Sequence record: PZ049694.1
Length of the DNA: 64,000 nucleotides
Direction: 5' to 3' (one strand)
Source: a phage
Part shown: positions 38 to 55,535 of the stretch, in pieces
How positions within the stretch are numbered: position 1 is the stretch's first letter
How the letters are laid out: each line of letters opens with the position of its first letter
Program-made: the position numbers and the translations under genes
Notes under the pieces: model-generated
Seen by the model: only the letters and a program-made list of their open reading frames with translations
What the model was told of the DNA's origin: nothing
Databases searched by the model: none

Positions 38-274
38 TTAACCACTTACTGGTGTAGGGGTAAACATTGCTGCGTTCTTAGTTTTCCAAGTTGCTGCATC
101 AGAAACGACATCAGAATAAGCTGCCTTTTCTGATGGAAAGATTTGGTAATGAGAATCTGCAATCCGATGTTCGTTTGAATAAATCTCAAACGGTACAGAA
201 ACTTCCATACCTTTAACTTCTTTGCCTTCACCTGCAGGATGCGTAAAGGTTTTGATATTAACGTAACCACCCAT
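38..274 (-). CDS. soc: small outer capsid protein Soc
   Basis: 78 aa; GYVNIKTF and HYQIFPSEKAAYS motifs as remembered for T4 Soc; AAGGAG SD; late promoter upstream, terminator downstream. Confidence 0.8.
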   Translation of the reverse strand: MGGYVNIKTFTHPAGEGKEVKGMEVSVPFEIYSNEHRIADSHYQIFPSEKAAYSDVVSDAATWKTKNAAMFTPTPVSG

Positions 275-319: not shown

Positions 320-841
320 TCAGTAACCATTATCCTGGCGTTCAAAGTTGTGTTGGTTTTTCAAGTAGTAAAGTTTAAAGATTTCTTCAGCAGAAAGACC
401 CAGACCTTGGAACATGTTCAGAACGAAGTGCAGAATATCAATCATCTCAAATTTAATTTCAAGCTGGTCTTCAGGAGACAGTTCATCGATACGACGATTA
501 CGATATTCAGCATGTTGTGCTTTCCACGGCTTCCATACACTGCTGGCGGCTTTTTCACCATTGCTCATACCACCAAGTGAAGTCAGCAGTTCACGGAATT
601 CATCATCAATATAATCTTTCTGATTACGCAGCCAATCAACAACGTCGCCTGCAGTGGCCAATTCATCAGGATGTTTGTTATGTTCAGGCTTGTCATTTGC
701 CAAACGAACCTGTAAAGATTTCTGCATATCAAGCATTACCTGAAGTGGGTCTTTATCTTCGTGAATCAGAGCATTAAAATAAGCTTCTTCTGCTTTATCA
801 ACACCAGAAATAAGTTGTGAACATTCGTTAAAGTGTGCCAT
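320..841 (-). CDS. 56: dCTP pyrophosphatase gp56 (MazG-like)
   Basis: ExxE (EFRE) and ExxD (EMID) MazG-type motifs; N-terminus MAHFNEC as remembered for T4 gp56; start moved to internal ATG at 841 (track start 856). Confidence 0.75.
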   Translation of the reverse strand: MAHFNECSQLISGVDKAEEAYFNALIHEDKDPLQVMLDMQKSLQVRLANDKPEHNKHPDELATAGDVVDWLRNQKDYIDDEFRELLTSLGGMSNGEKAASSVWKPWKAQHAEYRNRRIDELSPEDQLEIKFEMIDILHFVLNMFQGLGLSAEEIFKLYYLKNQHNFERQDNGY

Positions 842-929
842 TATTTTTCCTTTCAATTCAGTATAAGAGAGTTAATTCTAACATTAATTTTATAAAGCGT
901 AATAAATAATAGGTAACTAAGGAGATATT

Positions 930-1127
930 ATGTTTAAACTTCCATCGTTAATCAATGCTATTAAAGGCAATAAAAAGAAAACTGCTATCGCCGCAATAGT
1001 TGTAGGTGGCATTATTTCATGGAACTTCGGTATCGCACCATTATTAGTTGCTAATGGTATTATAGTTCCTTCTGTTCCATTGGATACTGTAGTCGATTTG
1101 GCCTTTGCTATTATAGGGCTTGTTTAA
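930..1127 (+). CDS. small hydrophobic protein (65 aa), opposite strand to neighbours
   Basis: Strong SD AAGGAG 5 nt before ATG; two hydrophobic segments (AIAAIVVGGIISW, VVDLAFAIIGLV); ends convergent with the primase gene. Confidence 0.45.
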   Translation: MFKLPSLINAIKGNKKKTAIAAIVVGGIISWNFGIAPLLVANGIIVPSVPLDTVVDLAFAIIGLV

Positions 1128-2146
1128 ATCTTCGAATAATGAGATAATCTCATTTTAGCATGCAACCCACTTGAAATATTCTGTTTCATGTATTCTAAAA
1201 TTTCTTGTGGTGTTGCATTTTCTTTCATTACCATATCATTCACGTCCTTTGATCTCCATGGAGCTCGGTCCCAGAACATGACACGTTCGCCTGCATCAAC
1301 TAATCGCTTCATGCGAGCTATAGTGTCTTTGTGTCGCGGTTCATTATCCATTACCCATACCCGACGTTCTTTAAATGGTACCACATCTAAATCTATTGAG
1401 CCGCCTGTAATAGCGATTGCATTGGGTATGAATAAACTATCAATAGGGCCTTCCATTACCCAGACGTCTCCTTCCTTAACACGTTCAACACCGTAAATTT
1501 TTGTTGCAGACTCAAACGCTTTAATAGTGATATATTTCTGAGGAGCATCTTTACGAAGTGCACGTCCTTGGAATGACTCGGCCTTCCCGTCTTTATTAAA
1601 AATAGGAATCACTAAACGTGGTTCGGGAATCTCTTTCTTATACGTACCAGGTTGAATCTTGTTGACCAATTTAGGCCATTCTAATGTGAACCATAATCTG
1701 TTCCACGATTCTTTAGGAATACACCGAGACTTAACATATTTCACAATAGGATGCTCTTCGGGCAGCTTGTCCAGACGAGAACAAGACGGCAAAGAATTTA
1801 TAGTCTTTTTCTCCGGTTCCGGTTTATGTTCAGGAACCTTTTCAATCTTTGGTTCCATTCTAGCTTTTTCTTTACGAACTTCCATTAGATATTCGCGATA
1901 AAGCTCTTCATCATACTCTTTTAAGTATCCGGAAATTGTATTGTGGTATTGGCAATTATAACAATGTACATTACCAGGAGTACCGCCATAATACCATCCG
2001 CGAGCTTTCATTGCATCTGTCTGGGAGTCGCCACAAACTGGACATCGAAATGTTAATTTAAATGTGCTTGAATTATTGATTTGTCTAAAACGAGGTAGGT
2101 GAGAAAACGCGCGATAAGCAAATTCATTATCTATCCATTCAGCCAT
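1124..2146 (-). CDS. 61: DNA primase gp61
   Basis: 340 aa; N-terminal zinc ribbon CPVCGDS...CYNC; position between 56 and 41. Confidence 0.9.
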   Translation of the reverse strand: MAEWIDNEFAYRAFSHLPRFRQINNSSTFKLTFRCPVCGDSQTDAMKARGWYYGGTPGNVHCYNCQYHNTISGYLKEYDEELYREYLMEVRKEKARMEPKIEKVPEHKPEPEKKTINSLPSCSRLDKLPEEHPIVKYVKSRCIPKESWNRLWFTLEWPKLVNKIQPGTYKKEIPEPRLVIPIFNKDGKAESFQGRALRKDAPQKYITIKAFESATKIYGVERVKEGDVWVMEGPIDSLFIPNAIAITGGSIDLDVVPFKERRVWVMDNEPRHKDTIARMKRLVDAGERVMFWDRAPWRSKDVNDMVMKENATPQEILEYMKQNISSGLHAKMRLSHYSKI

Positions 2147-3880: not shown

Positions 3881-4129
3881 TTATTCTTTTTCGCGAATAA
3901 TAATTACTTGTTGAGGCTGTAGAGCAGATTTCTTTTCGGCAACGATAGACCAAATTAAAGTTCCAATCCAACCAACCATCGTCCAGTTAAAGAGTAAAGA
4001 TACGAAGAAGATTGCTGTTGTGCTTTTTGTGCCACGAATAAGTGCGATTACCCAAGGCAACATGTAAATGATGATTGAACCAATACCTGCGATTAAAACT
4101 GCTACTGAACTAGCTACGAATAATTCCAT
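3881..4129 (-). CDS. small membrane protein (82 aa, two hydrophobic helices)
   Basis: Hydrophobic segments VAVLIAGIGSIIIYMLPWVIALI and IFFVSLLFNWTMVGWIGTLIWSIV. Confidence 0.55.
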   Translation of the reverse strand: MELFVASSVAVLIAGIGSIIIYMLPWVIALIRGTKSTTAIFFVSLLFNWTMVGWIGTLIWSIVAEKKSALQPQQVIIIREKE

Positions 4130-15506: not shown

Positions 15507-18218
15507 TCAAAAATCGAACATATCGAATAGAGATGCTTTCTTCTCGTAATCGAGTTTCGCTGCTGATGTGAATCCTTCAAGTGGTTTAATAAATGTCTTC
15601 TCAAGGAGAACAGTGTAGTCCATCCAATGAAGTACGTCGTCTTTAATTAAATCTGTGATTTCAGTACCAGAAGGCCATGCGATACATTTATCACCGAATG
15701 GGTTTCCTTCACGTAAAGGCAGAACATATACTTTTTCACCTTCTACAACTTGCGGCGCATCGATATTACCTTTGATAGCACGGTTATACGTCAGAATTCC
15801 ACGAATATGGAACGGGCATTTGGGACCAGGGAATCCACCTACATCATATTTAGCAATGTTATTCGCAGAAGATACCGACGCGATGCTAATATAATTCAAT
15901 TGACGGAATTCTTTTTCAAACTCTTTAAAATATTCTTGTAATGATTCTTCACCTTCTTGAAGCATACGACGAATACATTCTTTAAGAGCTTTCTGTACTG
16001 CTTTAGGAGTCGAAGATTTCTGCGTTTCAAGACCCATGATTTTAAGCTTAGGTTCAGCGTATCTGGTTCCTTCCATATCCCACACGTTTAATGCATAACG
16101 TTTCTTACCAGTCCAGAATCCACCAATACCTTTAGAACCGAGCGGAGGACCAGCGATAGCTTCTCGGTCCATGAACATTAAGTGTTGTTTATTGTTCATG
16201 TATTCACACATTTCACGGAAACCTCTATCAATAGCTGGTTCCATACGTTCACGAGCGAACTTATCTAAGAAGTCTACCCAATGGTTGGTATCACGGAATT
16301 TAGATTCACCAACCTTATCGATAATTTTATCAGCAGATACGTAAATAGAGTCTGTATCACCATAAAGAACGAAAGCTTCACCTTCTGTACCACAAACTTC
16401 GTTCAGATATTCATTAACTTTACGTTCAATCCACTGTAAAGCCATTTGCCCGAATGTTGTGATTGCAGTAGCATTACGCAAATCATAATAACGAAACCAA
16501 ACGTTGCCAAGTGCACCATAAAGTGAGTTGATAAGCAATTTACGGTTAATTTGGGCAGTCATACCTGCAACTTCAGTACGTTGAGCTCTAAACAACATTT
16601 CATTAAGAGATTTAGCAGACAACTTTTTAATCTTTTCTTTAATCTCATCGCTGAAGTCGAAACGATAATCAACATCTAATGGTTCGTCAACAGAAAGATT
16701 AGGATTATGCAATGCCTCTTTAATTATTTCGCCATTACGTTGAGCCGCAAGCATATAACCTTTATGTTCTTTACGTTGATTAAAGACTTTAGTGATTTCA
16801 GTTGGAACAACACCATCACGGTCTTTATAATACATCATGCCGTTAGGAGAACAACTGTACACATCAGAAGGACGTTCAGCGATTGCGTTAATATAATCAT
16901 GCAATGGAGCTACTTTAAACGTTCCTGCTATTGTTTCTGGGCTAATATTCACTTGGCGAATAATACTTGGATACAGAGATGTAAGGTCGAAACTCATTAC
17001 ATATTTGTATCGATTTGGAATAGGTTCCTTAACAAAAGCGCCAGGATAAGGTTGAACCGGGTGAGAACGACCTTGTGGAATCACCTTGTTCTGCTCTTTA
17101 AGGCTATTAAAAATAATAGCATCCCATGTTTTAATTGGGCTAAACACAGATTGAATCTGTATCTTAGCATAATAACCCATGTCCAAACTCAAGTTGATGA
17201 ACTGACGCTTAGCATCAATTTGCAATACACGATACACGTCGATAATGTTATAAGAAATATATCGTTGGTGATTGCTTTCACGAAGCTTAGAAATAGGGCC
17301 GTCATATTTCAGTTTACCAACGTTCAATTCAAATTCTGAAATGTAATCCAGAGAATATGATGGTTGGTTAGTAAAAGAGAATTTTTTGTAAAGGTCAATG
17401 TAATCAAGAACAGAGATACCGAACAATGTAATGATTTCACGAGAACCATACATGTTTTCGATAACTTTAACACGAGTTTTACGATGTGGTGATAAACGTT
17501 TCGCAGTAGATTCGCCAAAAATATTCTTGATTCGGTTATACACATATGGAATATCAAATGACTCAACGTTCCATCCAGTCAAAATGACAGGAGTTTTCTG
17601 TTGCCAGAAGTTGAGATATTCCATCAACAATTCTTTTTCGTTATCGAACGGCATATAAATGATTTTATCGATAATTTCGGATGGAACTTCATCACCACCT
17701 TGTTCTTGAAGCTTAGCCGCAATTTCGATAGACCATTCTTCTACATTACCATATGGAGAATTCAATAGATCAAATACGTAGAACCTGTCGTCAATTGAGT
17801 CATAATGGGTGATAGCATCAATTGGATGTTTTGCTTGTGACGGCTCAGGGAACCCGTCAGGAGATGTTACTTCGATGTCGAAGTTAGCCACACGAATTTT
17901 TGTATGGTCGTATTTGATTTCATAGTTATAAGTGTCAGACAAATACGCCAATTTGAAATCGTCCATGCCAAGTGCTTCAAGTCCGATATCTTCCATGCGT
18001 TTAATCCATTGGGAGGCATCACGCATATTAGCGAACAACTTACGAGTACACGGCTTACCGTAGATATCGAAATATTTCGTAGCCTGACTTTCTGGACAAT
18101 GAGCAAACAGTGATGGTTTATATTCTACTTCACGAGTACGTTCACGGCCATTAGAATCGATGTAACGTTCAAAAATTGAATCACCAATCTGTTCAACCGT
18201 TAAGTAAAATTCTTTCAT
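15507..18218 (-). CDS. 43: DNA polymerase gp43 (family B)
   Basis: 903 aa; exo motif FDIE; polymerase motif LYGDTDS; N-terminus as remembered for T4 gp43. Confidence 0.95.
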   Translation of the reverse strand: MKEFYLTVEQIGDSIFERYIDSNGRERTREVEYKPSLFAHCPESQATKYFDIYGKPCTRKLFANMRDASQWIKRMEDIGLEALGMDDFKLAYLSDTYNYEIKYDHTKIRVANFDIEVTSPDGFPEPSQAKHPIDAITHYDSIDDRFYVFDLLNSPYGNVEEWSIEIAAKLQEQGGDEVPSEIIDKIIYMPFDNEKELLMEYLNFWQQKTPVILTGWNVESFDIPYVYNRIKNIFGESTAKRLSPHRKTRVKVIENMYGSREIITLFGISVLDYIDLYKKFSFTNQPSYSLDYISEFELNVGKLKYDGPISKLRESNHQRYISYNIIDVYRVLQIDAKRQFINLSLDMGYYAKIQIQSVFSPIKTWDAIIFNSLKEQNKVIPQGRSHPVQPYPGAFVKEPIPNRYKYVMSFDLTSLYPSIIRQVNISPETIAGTFKVAPLHDYINAIAERPSDVYSCSPNGMMYYKDRDGVVPTEITKVFNQRKEHKGYMLAAQRNGEIIKEALHNPNLSVDEPLDVDYRFDFSDEIKEKIKKLSAKSLNEMLFRAQRTEVAGMTAQINRKLLINSLYGALGNVWFRYYDLRNATAITTFGQMALQWIERKVNEYLNEVCGTEGEAFVLYGDTDSIYVSADKIIDKVGESKFRDTNHWVDFLDKFARERMEPAIDRGFREMCEYMNNKQHLMFMDREAIAGPPLGSKGIGGFWTGKKRYALNVWDMEGTRYAEPKLKIMGLETQKSSTPKAVQKALKECIRRMLQEGEESLQEYFKEFEKEFRQLNYISIASVSSANNIAKYDVGGFPGPKCPFHIRGILTYNRAIKGNIDAPQVVEGEKVYVLPLREGNPFGDKCIAWPSGTEITDLIKDDVLHWMDYTVLLEKTFIKPLEGFTSAAKLDYEKKASLFDMFDF

Positions 18219-50095: not shown

Positions 50096-50122
50096 AATTT
50101 CCTCCAAGTAGTTGATGAATGT

Positions 50123-50152
50123 ATAGTATCAAAGTCCTTGGAGGAAGTAAAC
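50123..50152 (-). promoter_or_regulatory. early-type sigma70 promoter cassette upstream of denV
   Basis: Minus strand -35 GTTTAC, 18-bp spacer, -10 TACTAT. Confidence 0.45.
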
Positions 50153-50153
50153 A

Positions 50154-50354
50154 CTATTTTTCTGAAGCGCCTGAAATATATTTTTCAAGACGTTGTTTCA
50201 TCAGCGAACCGTTCTTGGCGATTTCTTCCGGTTTATCGCACATACGCAACAAGGCTTCAAGCTTAACGATATCACTGGTGCGTTCAAATTTGCGAGTATC
50301 TATCTTACTAGCAAGTTCAGAAATACGTGCTAATAGACTTTCGGCTTCAACCAA
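50154..50354 (-). CDS. hypothetical protein (66 aa)
   Basis: Minus-strand ORF; antisense plus-strand ORF also present. Confidence 0.4.
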   Translation of the reverse strand: MVEAESLLARISELASKIDTRKFERTSDIVKLEALLRMCDKPEEIAKNGSLMKQRLEKYISGASEK

Positions 50355-50431
50355 AGCTGCACCTAGCTTAGTTGCAAATGTGTCAGTAGCTTAGTTAAGA
50401 ATAGATTCTGATAAAAATTCACTATATGTTT

Positions 50432-54947: not shown

Positions 54948-55220
54948 TTAGCAAGTGTGAGAAGATGCGATCCAACCACCAGTTTCGAGGCTTAGGTTGT
55001 AGTCGTATTGGTAAACGTCGGCCCATTCAGCATAGCCGTTTTTTGTACAACGTTCAAGGTCGGCTTTAAGCTGTCCGGGTGAATGATATGTTCCACCCAT
55101 ACCATAAGCTGGATACAAGTCGAATGTTGTGTTTTGTTTATCAGCAATTTCTTTGGCAGCCTCAATAGCTGCATAGATTTTTGCTACAGCTTCGGCCAGT
55201 TCGGTTTGTTCTTTAGACAT
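54948..55220 (-). CDS. small protein (90 aa), GWxSSSxxC family
   Basis: C-terminus GGWIASSHTC. Confidence 0.45.
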   Translation of the reverse strand: MSKEQTELAEAVAKIYAAIEAAKEIADKQNTTFDLYPAYGMGGTYHSPGQLKADLERCTKNGYAEWADVYQYDYNLSLETGGWIASSHTC

Positions 55221-55229
55221 AATGATTCC

Positions 55230-55535
55230 TTAGCACATCGCAGAAGACGAAACCCAAGCACCTTCAGTAATAACGTAACCATTACCTTCACGCTTAACAT
55301 CGCCACCATTATTTTCAATTTCATCTTTCATCCACTGGGATACGATTTCACCCTTAGGATAATAAGTACGACCGCTACCATAATCACCTACAGAAAATGA
55401 TACGGCATATTGGTCCGCGATCTTTGTTGCTTCTTCTTCGATACGTTCAGCTTGATTCAGAAGTTTATAAATTGCATCTGAAGCGGATTTGGCATCATTA
55501 AACTCTGGTACTTTAATTTCAATAATCTTACTCAT
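55230..55535 (-). CDS. small protein (101 aa), GWxSSSxxC family
   Basis: C-terminus GAWVSSSAMC; N-terminus MSK... similar to the 54948 copy. Confidence 0.45.
   Translation of the reverse strand: MSKIIEIKVPEFNDAKSASDAIYKLLNQAERIEEEATKIADQYAVSFSVGDYGSGRTYYPKGEIVSQWMKDEIENNGGDVKREGNGYVITEGAWVSSSAMC

Follow-up and report, generated by a model that had tools for sequence, protein, structure and literature searches.

A conserved plus-strand gene for a predicted single-pass membrane peptide beside the primase gene of an RB69-like phage

The window analyzed here is a 64,000-nucleotide stretch of phage DNA (sequence record PZ049694.1). Its bases 1 to 2400 had 99.2% identity to Escherichia phage S143_2 (Mosigvirus) and 97 to 99% identity to about 150 further Mosigvirus genomes, and on this sequence identity we assign its source to an RB69-like T-even phage (Mosigvirus). 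The local gene order on the minus strand is imm, sp, 61.2, an unnamed 65-aa open reading frame (ORF), 61.1, 61, 56, and soc. On the opposite strand, flanked by genes 61 and 56, lies the ORF that is the subject of this study, present as the preliminary description of this DNA had claimed, with an ATG start and a 65-aa product (Table 1). Its stop codon overlaps that of gene 61 within positions 1124 to 1127. The two genes thus end on each other as described, but the arrangement is convergent and tail-to-tail rather than head-to-head.

Across the whole 64-kb window, 80 of the 82 nonoverlapping ORFs of at least 90 aa lie on the minus strand, in agreement with the earlier statement that nearly all genes are found there. 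The two exceptions, at 50119 to 50394 and 55083 to 55400, are the only plus-strand ORFs of that length. They had no Shine-Dalgarno sequence (SD), no late-promoter core or other promoter, and no PHROG match; we judged them spurious for these reasons, and they are probably not genes. The 64 kb were also screened for ATG-initiated ORFs that reach 50 aa and are preceded, 5 to 12 nt upstream, by a strong SD; the minus strand yielded 42 and the plus strand a single one, the ORF at 930 to 1127.

Table 1. Positions and strands of the ORF, its signals and protein features, its neighbors in the window, and the T4 ortholog
Feature	Position	Strand	Remark
soc	38-274	-	Minus-strand local gene
Gene 56, dCTPase	320-841	-	Neighbor on the promoter side of the ORF
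Spacer between gene 56 and the ORF, 88 nt	842-929		Contains the late-promoter-like element
T4-type late-promoter-like element AATAAATA	901-908	+	10 nt upstream of the SD
Shine-Dalgarno sequence AAGGAG	919-924	+	5 nt before the ATG
CDS, 65-aa membrane micro-protein (RB69ORF029w ortholog, PHROG 2024)	930-1127	+	ATG start
Predicted single transmembrane helix, codons 18-41	981-1052	+	AlphaFold2, hydrophobicity, flank charges
Conserved family core, codons 28-52	1011-1085	+	Alignments, weighted conservation over 118 members
Gene 61, DNA primase	1124-2146	-	Convergent with the ORF at 930-1127
Imm, small hydrophobic membrane protein	3881-4129	-	
T4 ortholog, 66 aa, unannotated	NC_000866 17738-17938 (L004 2939-3139)	+	AAGGAGG and GATAAATA upstream

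The ORF has the substitution pattern of a translated sequence. By base composition, a succession of 65 sense codons has a chance of ~0.014. Pairwise dN/dS was 0.04 to 0.13 within Mosigvirus and 0.12 to 0.22 within Tequatrovirus, and the Mosigvirus differences fell mostly at third codon positions (for example, 4/0/11 by codon position). Against a 71%-identical metagenomic relative, the differences by codon position were 18/6/33 and dN/dS was about 0.1. Since dN/dS values of 0.04 to 0.2 mark a protein-coding frame, the ORF is, on this comparative evidence, a genuine protein-coding gene under purifying selection. Every intact T4-like lineage examined keeps the frame open, for 57 to 67 codons, apart from a pseudogenized copy in phage UPEC07 (described below), and both the start codon and the SD are kept across lineages whose upstream DNA has diverged past alignment. 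The product matched the PHROG 2024 profile over its full length (E = 1.4e-26; residues 1 to 65 against profile positions 1 to 65). It is equated with RB69ORF029w in the annotation of phage PhAPEC2, is also annotated in S143_2, and is carried by many relatives as an annotated hypothetical protein. The existence of the ORF is therefore not new, since it has been a hypothetical gene since the RB69 genome paper and has an existing PHROG.

Loss of the ORF among relatives had been raised in the preliminary description as an argument against a gene, and we observed the opposite. The ORF is kept across Tevenvirinae, where it adjoins the 3′ end of gene 61 and reads from the other strand; it was found in this position in Mosigvirus, Tequatrovirus, Gaprivervirus, Dhakavirus, Moonvirus, and Marfa-, Slopek-, and Karam-like phages. 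The Tequatrovirus carriers include T4, T2, the RB series, and Yersinia phage fPS-65. The unit abuts gene 61, with stop codons that overlap or lie 9 to 18 nt apart, and the genes on its promoter side vary (56 in the window, dam in T4, and other ORFs elsewhere). The T4 ortholog sits in the 309-bp gap between dam and 61; besides being unannotated in the T4 reference, it is missing from the T4D annotation used in the 2025 HIDEN-SEQ study. Nolan et al. (2006) placed RB69ORF029w among the "novel ORFs" of RB69 that lack a counterpart in T4 (PMC1524935), a status that it acquired because the T4 counterpart is unannotated.

Two paralog types make up the family in T4-like phages. The protein encoded in the window is of type A, which tblastn recovered from 708 phage records; type B, which begins MGTLFYQIWKL and is about 20% identical to type A, was recovered from 134 and also matches PHROG 2024 (E = 2.8e-20). 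Gaprivervirus UPEC01 carries A followed by B in tandem (L006 2501 to 2698 and 2707 to 2907), and a metagenomic T4-like phage carries B followed by A (L017 2805 to 3008 and 3001 to 3198). In UPEC07, the B copy is pseudogenized by an early stop (ATG TGA) and a deletion (L007 about 2700 to 2815). Only A was found in Tequatrovirus and Mosigvirus, and only B in Dhaka-, Marfa-, and Slopek-like phages.

Farther afield, 1.84 billion cluster representatives were searched exhaustively with an HMM, which gave 19 matches of 33 to 70 aa, all of them 45 to 70 aa long except for one 33-aa fragment; scans of IMG/VR returned only 7 loci. A few matches fell outside T4-like phages: distant homologs were placed among tail genes in two siphophage-like contigs (L023 2260 to 4082 and L025 3279 to 5089), and one lay at a prophage end beside host genes. 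These contexts are mixed and point to no single process; the family behaves in them as a portable accessory module. The two siphophage-like contigs share a conserved block, whose order is a lambda-J-like tail tip gene, followed by genes for a 94- to 98-aa transmembrane/coiled-coil protein, an endonuclease VII, and the peptide, and then by a 179-aa "minor tail protein" (phrog_1924) and a 105-aa ORF. On a separate 2.2-kb metagenomic contig (L027), a distant member of 59 aa (129 to 308; E = 1.1e-5) lies 17 nt upstream of a gene with a RelA_SpoT domain (325 to 1383; 352 aa), and this member may be a membrane peptide that pairs with the alarmone-synthetase-like protein.

Expression signals upstream of the ORF are of the kind expected for a late T4 gene. 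The strong AAGGAG SD that had been reported was found 5 nt ahead of the ATG, and AGGAG(G) is common to all T4-like orthologs that open the plus-strand unit. Upstream of it, the element AATAAATA matches 7 of the 8 positions of the T4 late promoter consensus, TATAAATA, which is placed at −13 to −6 and goes with no −35 element. The single deviation, A(−13), is the commonest variant among T4 late promoters (9 of 50 listed sites; PMC2988020), and the −13 position is poorly conserved in RB69 late promoters (PMC1524935). At the same position T4 has G and Gaprivervirus has C, both rarer variants. The predicted transcription start would lie at ~913 to 915 and leave a leader of about 16 nt. Of 10 diverged lineages, 9 have an ATAAATA core (ATTAAATA in Moon) placed 5 to 13 nt ahead of the SD, with the full TATAAATA in the upstream sequence of Marfa; in the remaining lineage (L019), the late-promoter motif was absent upstream. 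No sigma-70-like promoter for the ORF was found upstream on the plus strand, and the HMM scan of RB69 by Nolan et al. lists no late promoter at the ORF (PMC1524935).

The ATAAATA core is scarce in this DNA, with 12 copies in the window against 29.8 ± 5.9 expected; all 100 shuffles contained at least 12. This depletion is consistent with selection against stray late promoters in an early-gene region. Only three copies are on the plus strand, and the two others lie within minus-strand genes with no credible plus-strand ORF downstream. Taken together, these sequence features strongly suggest gp55-dependent late transcription of the ORF, which is the best-supported reading of its expression. No intrinsic terminator was found on either strand between 700 and 4200, so that, with no terminator for at least 3 kb, the plus-strand transcript should extend antisense into gene 61.

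Several minus-strand signals were seen in the same region. One of the minus-strand ATAAATA copies belongs to a perfect TATAAATA at 313 to 306. It precedes the start of soc by 31 nt, as expected for the late promoter of that gene, and agrees with prediction Pl:15279 made for RB69 by Nolan et al. (PMC1524935). A sigma-70-like site, TTGATT-17-CATAAT, at 927 to 955 falls within the first part of the ORF; no other promoter-like match was seen between 700 and 1500, and the site could contribute to gene 56 transcription. In T4, a terminator-like minus-strand hairpin, ATGGCATTAACAAGTGCCAT, followed by TAATTTTTGT (L004 2954 to 2973, T4 about 17753 to 17772), lies inside codons 6 to 12 of the plus-strand ORF. 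Gene 61 transcripts could terminate at this hairpin, which the annotation of Yersinia phage fPS-65 lists as a terminator; the window does not have it.

The product had been described as containing two hydrophobic segments, of which one qualifies as a true transmembrane helix (residues ~18 to 41) and the other does not. AlphaFold2, run on an 18-sequence alignment, gave a mean pLDDT of 82, with helices at residues 3 to 11, 15 to 41, and 51 to 62 and a loop at 42 to 50. The C-terminal helix is amphipathic, spans 12 to 16 residues, and carries two Asp; it is too short and too polar to cross the membrane, which rules out a second membrane-spanning segment. For RB69ORF029w, a single transmembrane segment at 21 to 41 was predicted previously (Nolan et al., PMC1524935 Additional File 2). 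In every subfamily the N-terminal flank has a net charge of +5 and the C-terminal flank has a net charge of −1 to −2, from which the positive-inside rule predicts an N-in/C-out orientation. We therefore predict a single-pass inner-membrane protein with its N terminus inside and its C terminus outside.

Conservation within the family is concentrated in a short core with the pattern W31-N32-x4-P37-x-A39-x3-G43-x2-L46-P47-x-V49-x2-[D/E]52. In our alignments W31, N32, P37, G43, P47, and G63 were invariant; over 118 members, weighted conservation was 89% for W31, 94% for N32, 99% for P37, 95% for G43, and 89% for P47, with further conserved positions at A39, L46, V/I49, D/E52, and K/R17. The core covers the outer-leaflet half of the transmembrane helix and the periplasmic loop, and the variable part, over the same 118 members, is the inner half of the helix. 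General principles of transmembrane helix association underlie what follows. A fixed intramembrane Asn and Pro, together with a G-x3-P turn at the membrane surface, suggest that the core would serve for specific packing and not just as a hydrophobic anchor of the generic kind. In phiX174 E a transmembrane proline is essential, and Asn mediates transmembrane helix association. By analogy with phiX174 E and Asn-zipper peptides, the ORF product has an invariant Pro and an invariant polar Asn in a single transmembrane helix, and its conservation is concentrated in the helix, not in a soluble domain; it differs in showing no homology to these peptides and in that its ortholog is dispensable.

Transposon data are available for a T4 relative, phage Bas37, in which the gene bas37_0144 (91945 to 92145, plus strand) overlaps the primase gene by 4 nt (HIDEN-SEQ, bioRxiv 10.1101/2025.11.20.689424) and is the positional ortholog of the ORF. 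In that study, insertions were recovered at 20 of the 24 TA sites in the gene, which was classed as "Non-essential"; three host comparisons gave log2 fold changes of 0.33, 0.20, and −0.28 (P = 0.46 to 0.66), and it is not among the conditionally essential genes of the main text.

Comparison with known families returned relatives of the peptide and little else. With permissive thresholds, none of 18 members had a significant match in Pfam, NCBIfam, or PADLOC; profile searches of PDB sequences gave no significant match, and Foldseek gave none against PDB. In BFVD, Foldseek recovered nothing significant beyond the family itself, in which one entry bears the automatic name "Holin"; other "Holin" matches had E values of at least 3. 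The Ldr_toxin model matched 1 of the 18 members weakly and not significantly (E = 0.1). Homology to Imm was considered and rejected (hhalign against the Imm of the window, probability 0.4%). Literature searches on RB69ORF029w, on its peptide sequences, and on ribosome profiling of unannotated phage T4 ORFs returned nothing. The closest counterpart is RB69ORF029w/PHROG 2024 itself, which is the same family, at the same position and strand beside gene 61, with a single transmembrane segment.

We regard it as established that the accessory gene at this locus is genuine and conserved and that it encodes a single-pass micro-protein of the inner membrane. As for what that protein does, our favored reading, which we consider probable though well short of certain, is that this accessory T-even gene encodes a late, single-pass N-in/C-out transmembrane peptide that acts by helix-helix association at the periplasmic face. 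RNA polymerase modified by gp55, gp33, and gp45 would transcribe the ORF only late, from AATAAATA at 901 to 908. The 65-aa product would then insert in the inner membrane as an N-in/C-out signal-anchor protein, with a Lys-rich cytoplasmic head, one transmembrane helix, and an acidic periplasmic tail of 24 residues that ends in the amphipathic helix. There it may act through specific helix-helix association, either by self-oligomerization or by binding another inner-membrane protein. The concentration of conservation in the periplasmic loop and in that half of the helix which lies in the outer leaflet, along with the retention of diverged tandem paralogs in some lineages, points to such association, and the core offers suitable features (a mid-membrane Asn beside a Trp, a helix-kinking Pro, and the G-x3-P turn). 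The likely effect would be to modulate what happens at the envelope, for example the timing or inhibition of lysis, or late exclusion. Because nothing terminates the plus-strand transcript, a secondary effect could be antisense RNA that is made late and covers gene 61 in its 3′ part. The mechanistic part of this reading (oligomerization or partner binding, and a role at the envelope) derives entirely from the conservation pattern and the topology. The earlier suggestion of a late-expressed membrane peptide gains indirect support from a late core at the right distance, the lack of a plus-strand sigma-70 promoter, a transmembrane segment with a +5 flank, and purifying selection. The more specific roles proposed with it (holin or antiholin, superinfection-related, or toxin) fared poorly: there was no holin, toxin, or defense match, no similarity to Imm, no lysis cassette, and no phenotype for the Bas37 ortholog in the three host comparisons.

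An unlikely alternative, although the most probable of those weighed, is a holin- or antiholin-type lysis regulator, in which a late inner-membrane oligomer would form or gate lesions or tune the triggering of holin T. Like holins, the product is small, apparently late, and embedded in the membrane by one transmembrane segment; the mid-helix Asn would favor oligomerization, and the diverged tandem paralogs resemble holin/antiholin or two-component holin pairs. The member from phage OE5505 (UniProt A0A482MZV5) is even auto-named "Holin," a label for which we found no experimental basis. None of the 18 members, however, matched a holin model in Pfam or NCBIfam at E ≤ 10. Holins have a hydrophilic, charged C terminus, whereas the last 24 residues of the ORF product are hydrophobic and acidic (net −2) and its charge cluster is N-terminal; holin genes sit in lysis cassettes, whereas this gene lies between those for dCTPase and primase. 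T-even phages, moreover, already encode T, RI, and RIII. Since the Bas37 ortholog is dispensable, the product is not a lysis protein, and a true holin is unlikely. T4 T and RI have an N-terminal membrane segment and a periplasmic C terminus, and RI is nonessential. The ORF product is likewise phage encoded, with an N-terminal membrane segment and a periplasmic C terminus, but its periplasmic part is only 24 residues, in comparison to their folded domains, and its gene lies far from t, rI, and e. Type I toxins (Ldr, Hok, and TisB) are also small and hydrophobic, and their genes are also convergent with and overlap another transcript; the ORF, in contrast, belongs to a lytic phage, follows a putative late promoter, and has no antisense sRNA partner evident in promoter and terminator scans.

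A superinfection-exclusion or envelope-protection factor, which would block some component of the host inner membrane that other phages or colicins exploit, is possible but doubtful. Exclusion genes such as HK97 gp15 or cor typically occupy moron-like positions, and distant members of the family do so too, among tail genes in the two siphophage-like contigs and at the prophage end. A nonessential membrane peptide would also suit this role, and Imm and Sp are, like the ORF product, small nonessential T-even envelope proteins. The timing fits poorly: T4 Imm and Sp are early and encoded on the minus strand, whereas the ORF reads from the plus strand and has no promoter other than the late-type one. 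Imm gave a negative profile comparison, PADLOC models for defense and counter-defense assigned 0 families to the 18 members, and HIDEN-SEQ, a screen that does not measure exclusion, gave no phenotype on the clinical hosts of the three comparisons.

It is also conceivable, at a similarly low probability, that our favored reading extends to a near-universal late membrane regulator of Tevenvirinae, so far unrecognized and missed even in T4, in which the peptide, alone or as an A/B hetero-oligomer, would bind a host or phage inner-membrane protein through the W-N...P...G...P core and so time lysis inhibition or late exclusion, while the unterminated transcript would silence primase by antisense. 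If this were true, one promoter would deliver both a protein effector and an RNA effector.

That RNA is the main function, with the late promoter firing antisense into gene 61 to shut primase down late and the peptide being secondary, is very improbable. Regardless of the genes on its promoter side, the unit is invariably found against the 3′ end of gene 61. [quoted passage not shown] Selection nevertheless acts strongly on the amino acid sequence, the invariant residues persist at about 20 to 30% identity, and homologs occur in phages without an adjacent primase gene. Given this selection on the protein and these homologs, antisense transcription cannot be the main function and could only be an addition; an antisense effect on gene 61 is plausible as a by-product of the architecture. 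Finally, a chance frame over a noncoding 61-56 spacer that holds minus-strand signals (terminators, a gene 56 promoter, or an origin element) might have drawn on the sigma-70-like site at 955 to 927, the T4 terminator-like hairpin in codons 6 to 12, and the missing annotation in T4, but it is excluded on sequence grounds by dN/dS well below 1 with third-position bias, by conservation of frame, SD, and start codon, by protein homology that spans genera with unalignable upstream DNA, and by the lack of the T4 hairpin in the window.

Four findings appear to be unrecorded so far: that T4 has an unannotated ortholog, that the late-promoter core is conserved, that there are two types of paralog, and that the family shares the W-N...P...G...P core. 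T4 is the reference for the whole phage group, yet its curated annotation is without this conserved and selected gene, and its recognition closes a small gap. The locus also illustrates neatly how an apparently late gene can sit in antisense orientation within an early replication block, and its 65 residues make a compact test case for phage micro-proteins in the inner membrane. A phenotype in lysis timing, exclusion, or antisense control of primase, if found, would add a component to a largely catalogued system; without one, the gene would be one more dispensable accessory ORF.

Automatic annotation has misnamed several of these small ORFs. Type B copies of 66 aa are called "DNA packaging ATPase" in UPEC01 (QQG30882.1) and in the Klebsiella phages VAC36 and SAKp28, and in UPEC01 and UPEC07 the small ORF just upstream of gene 61, where 61.1 would be expected, goes by the name "major capsid domain-containing protein."
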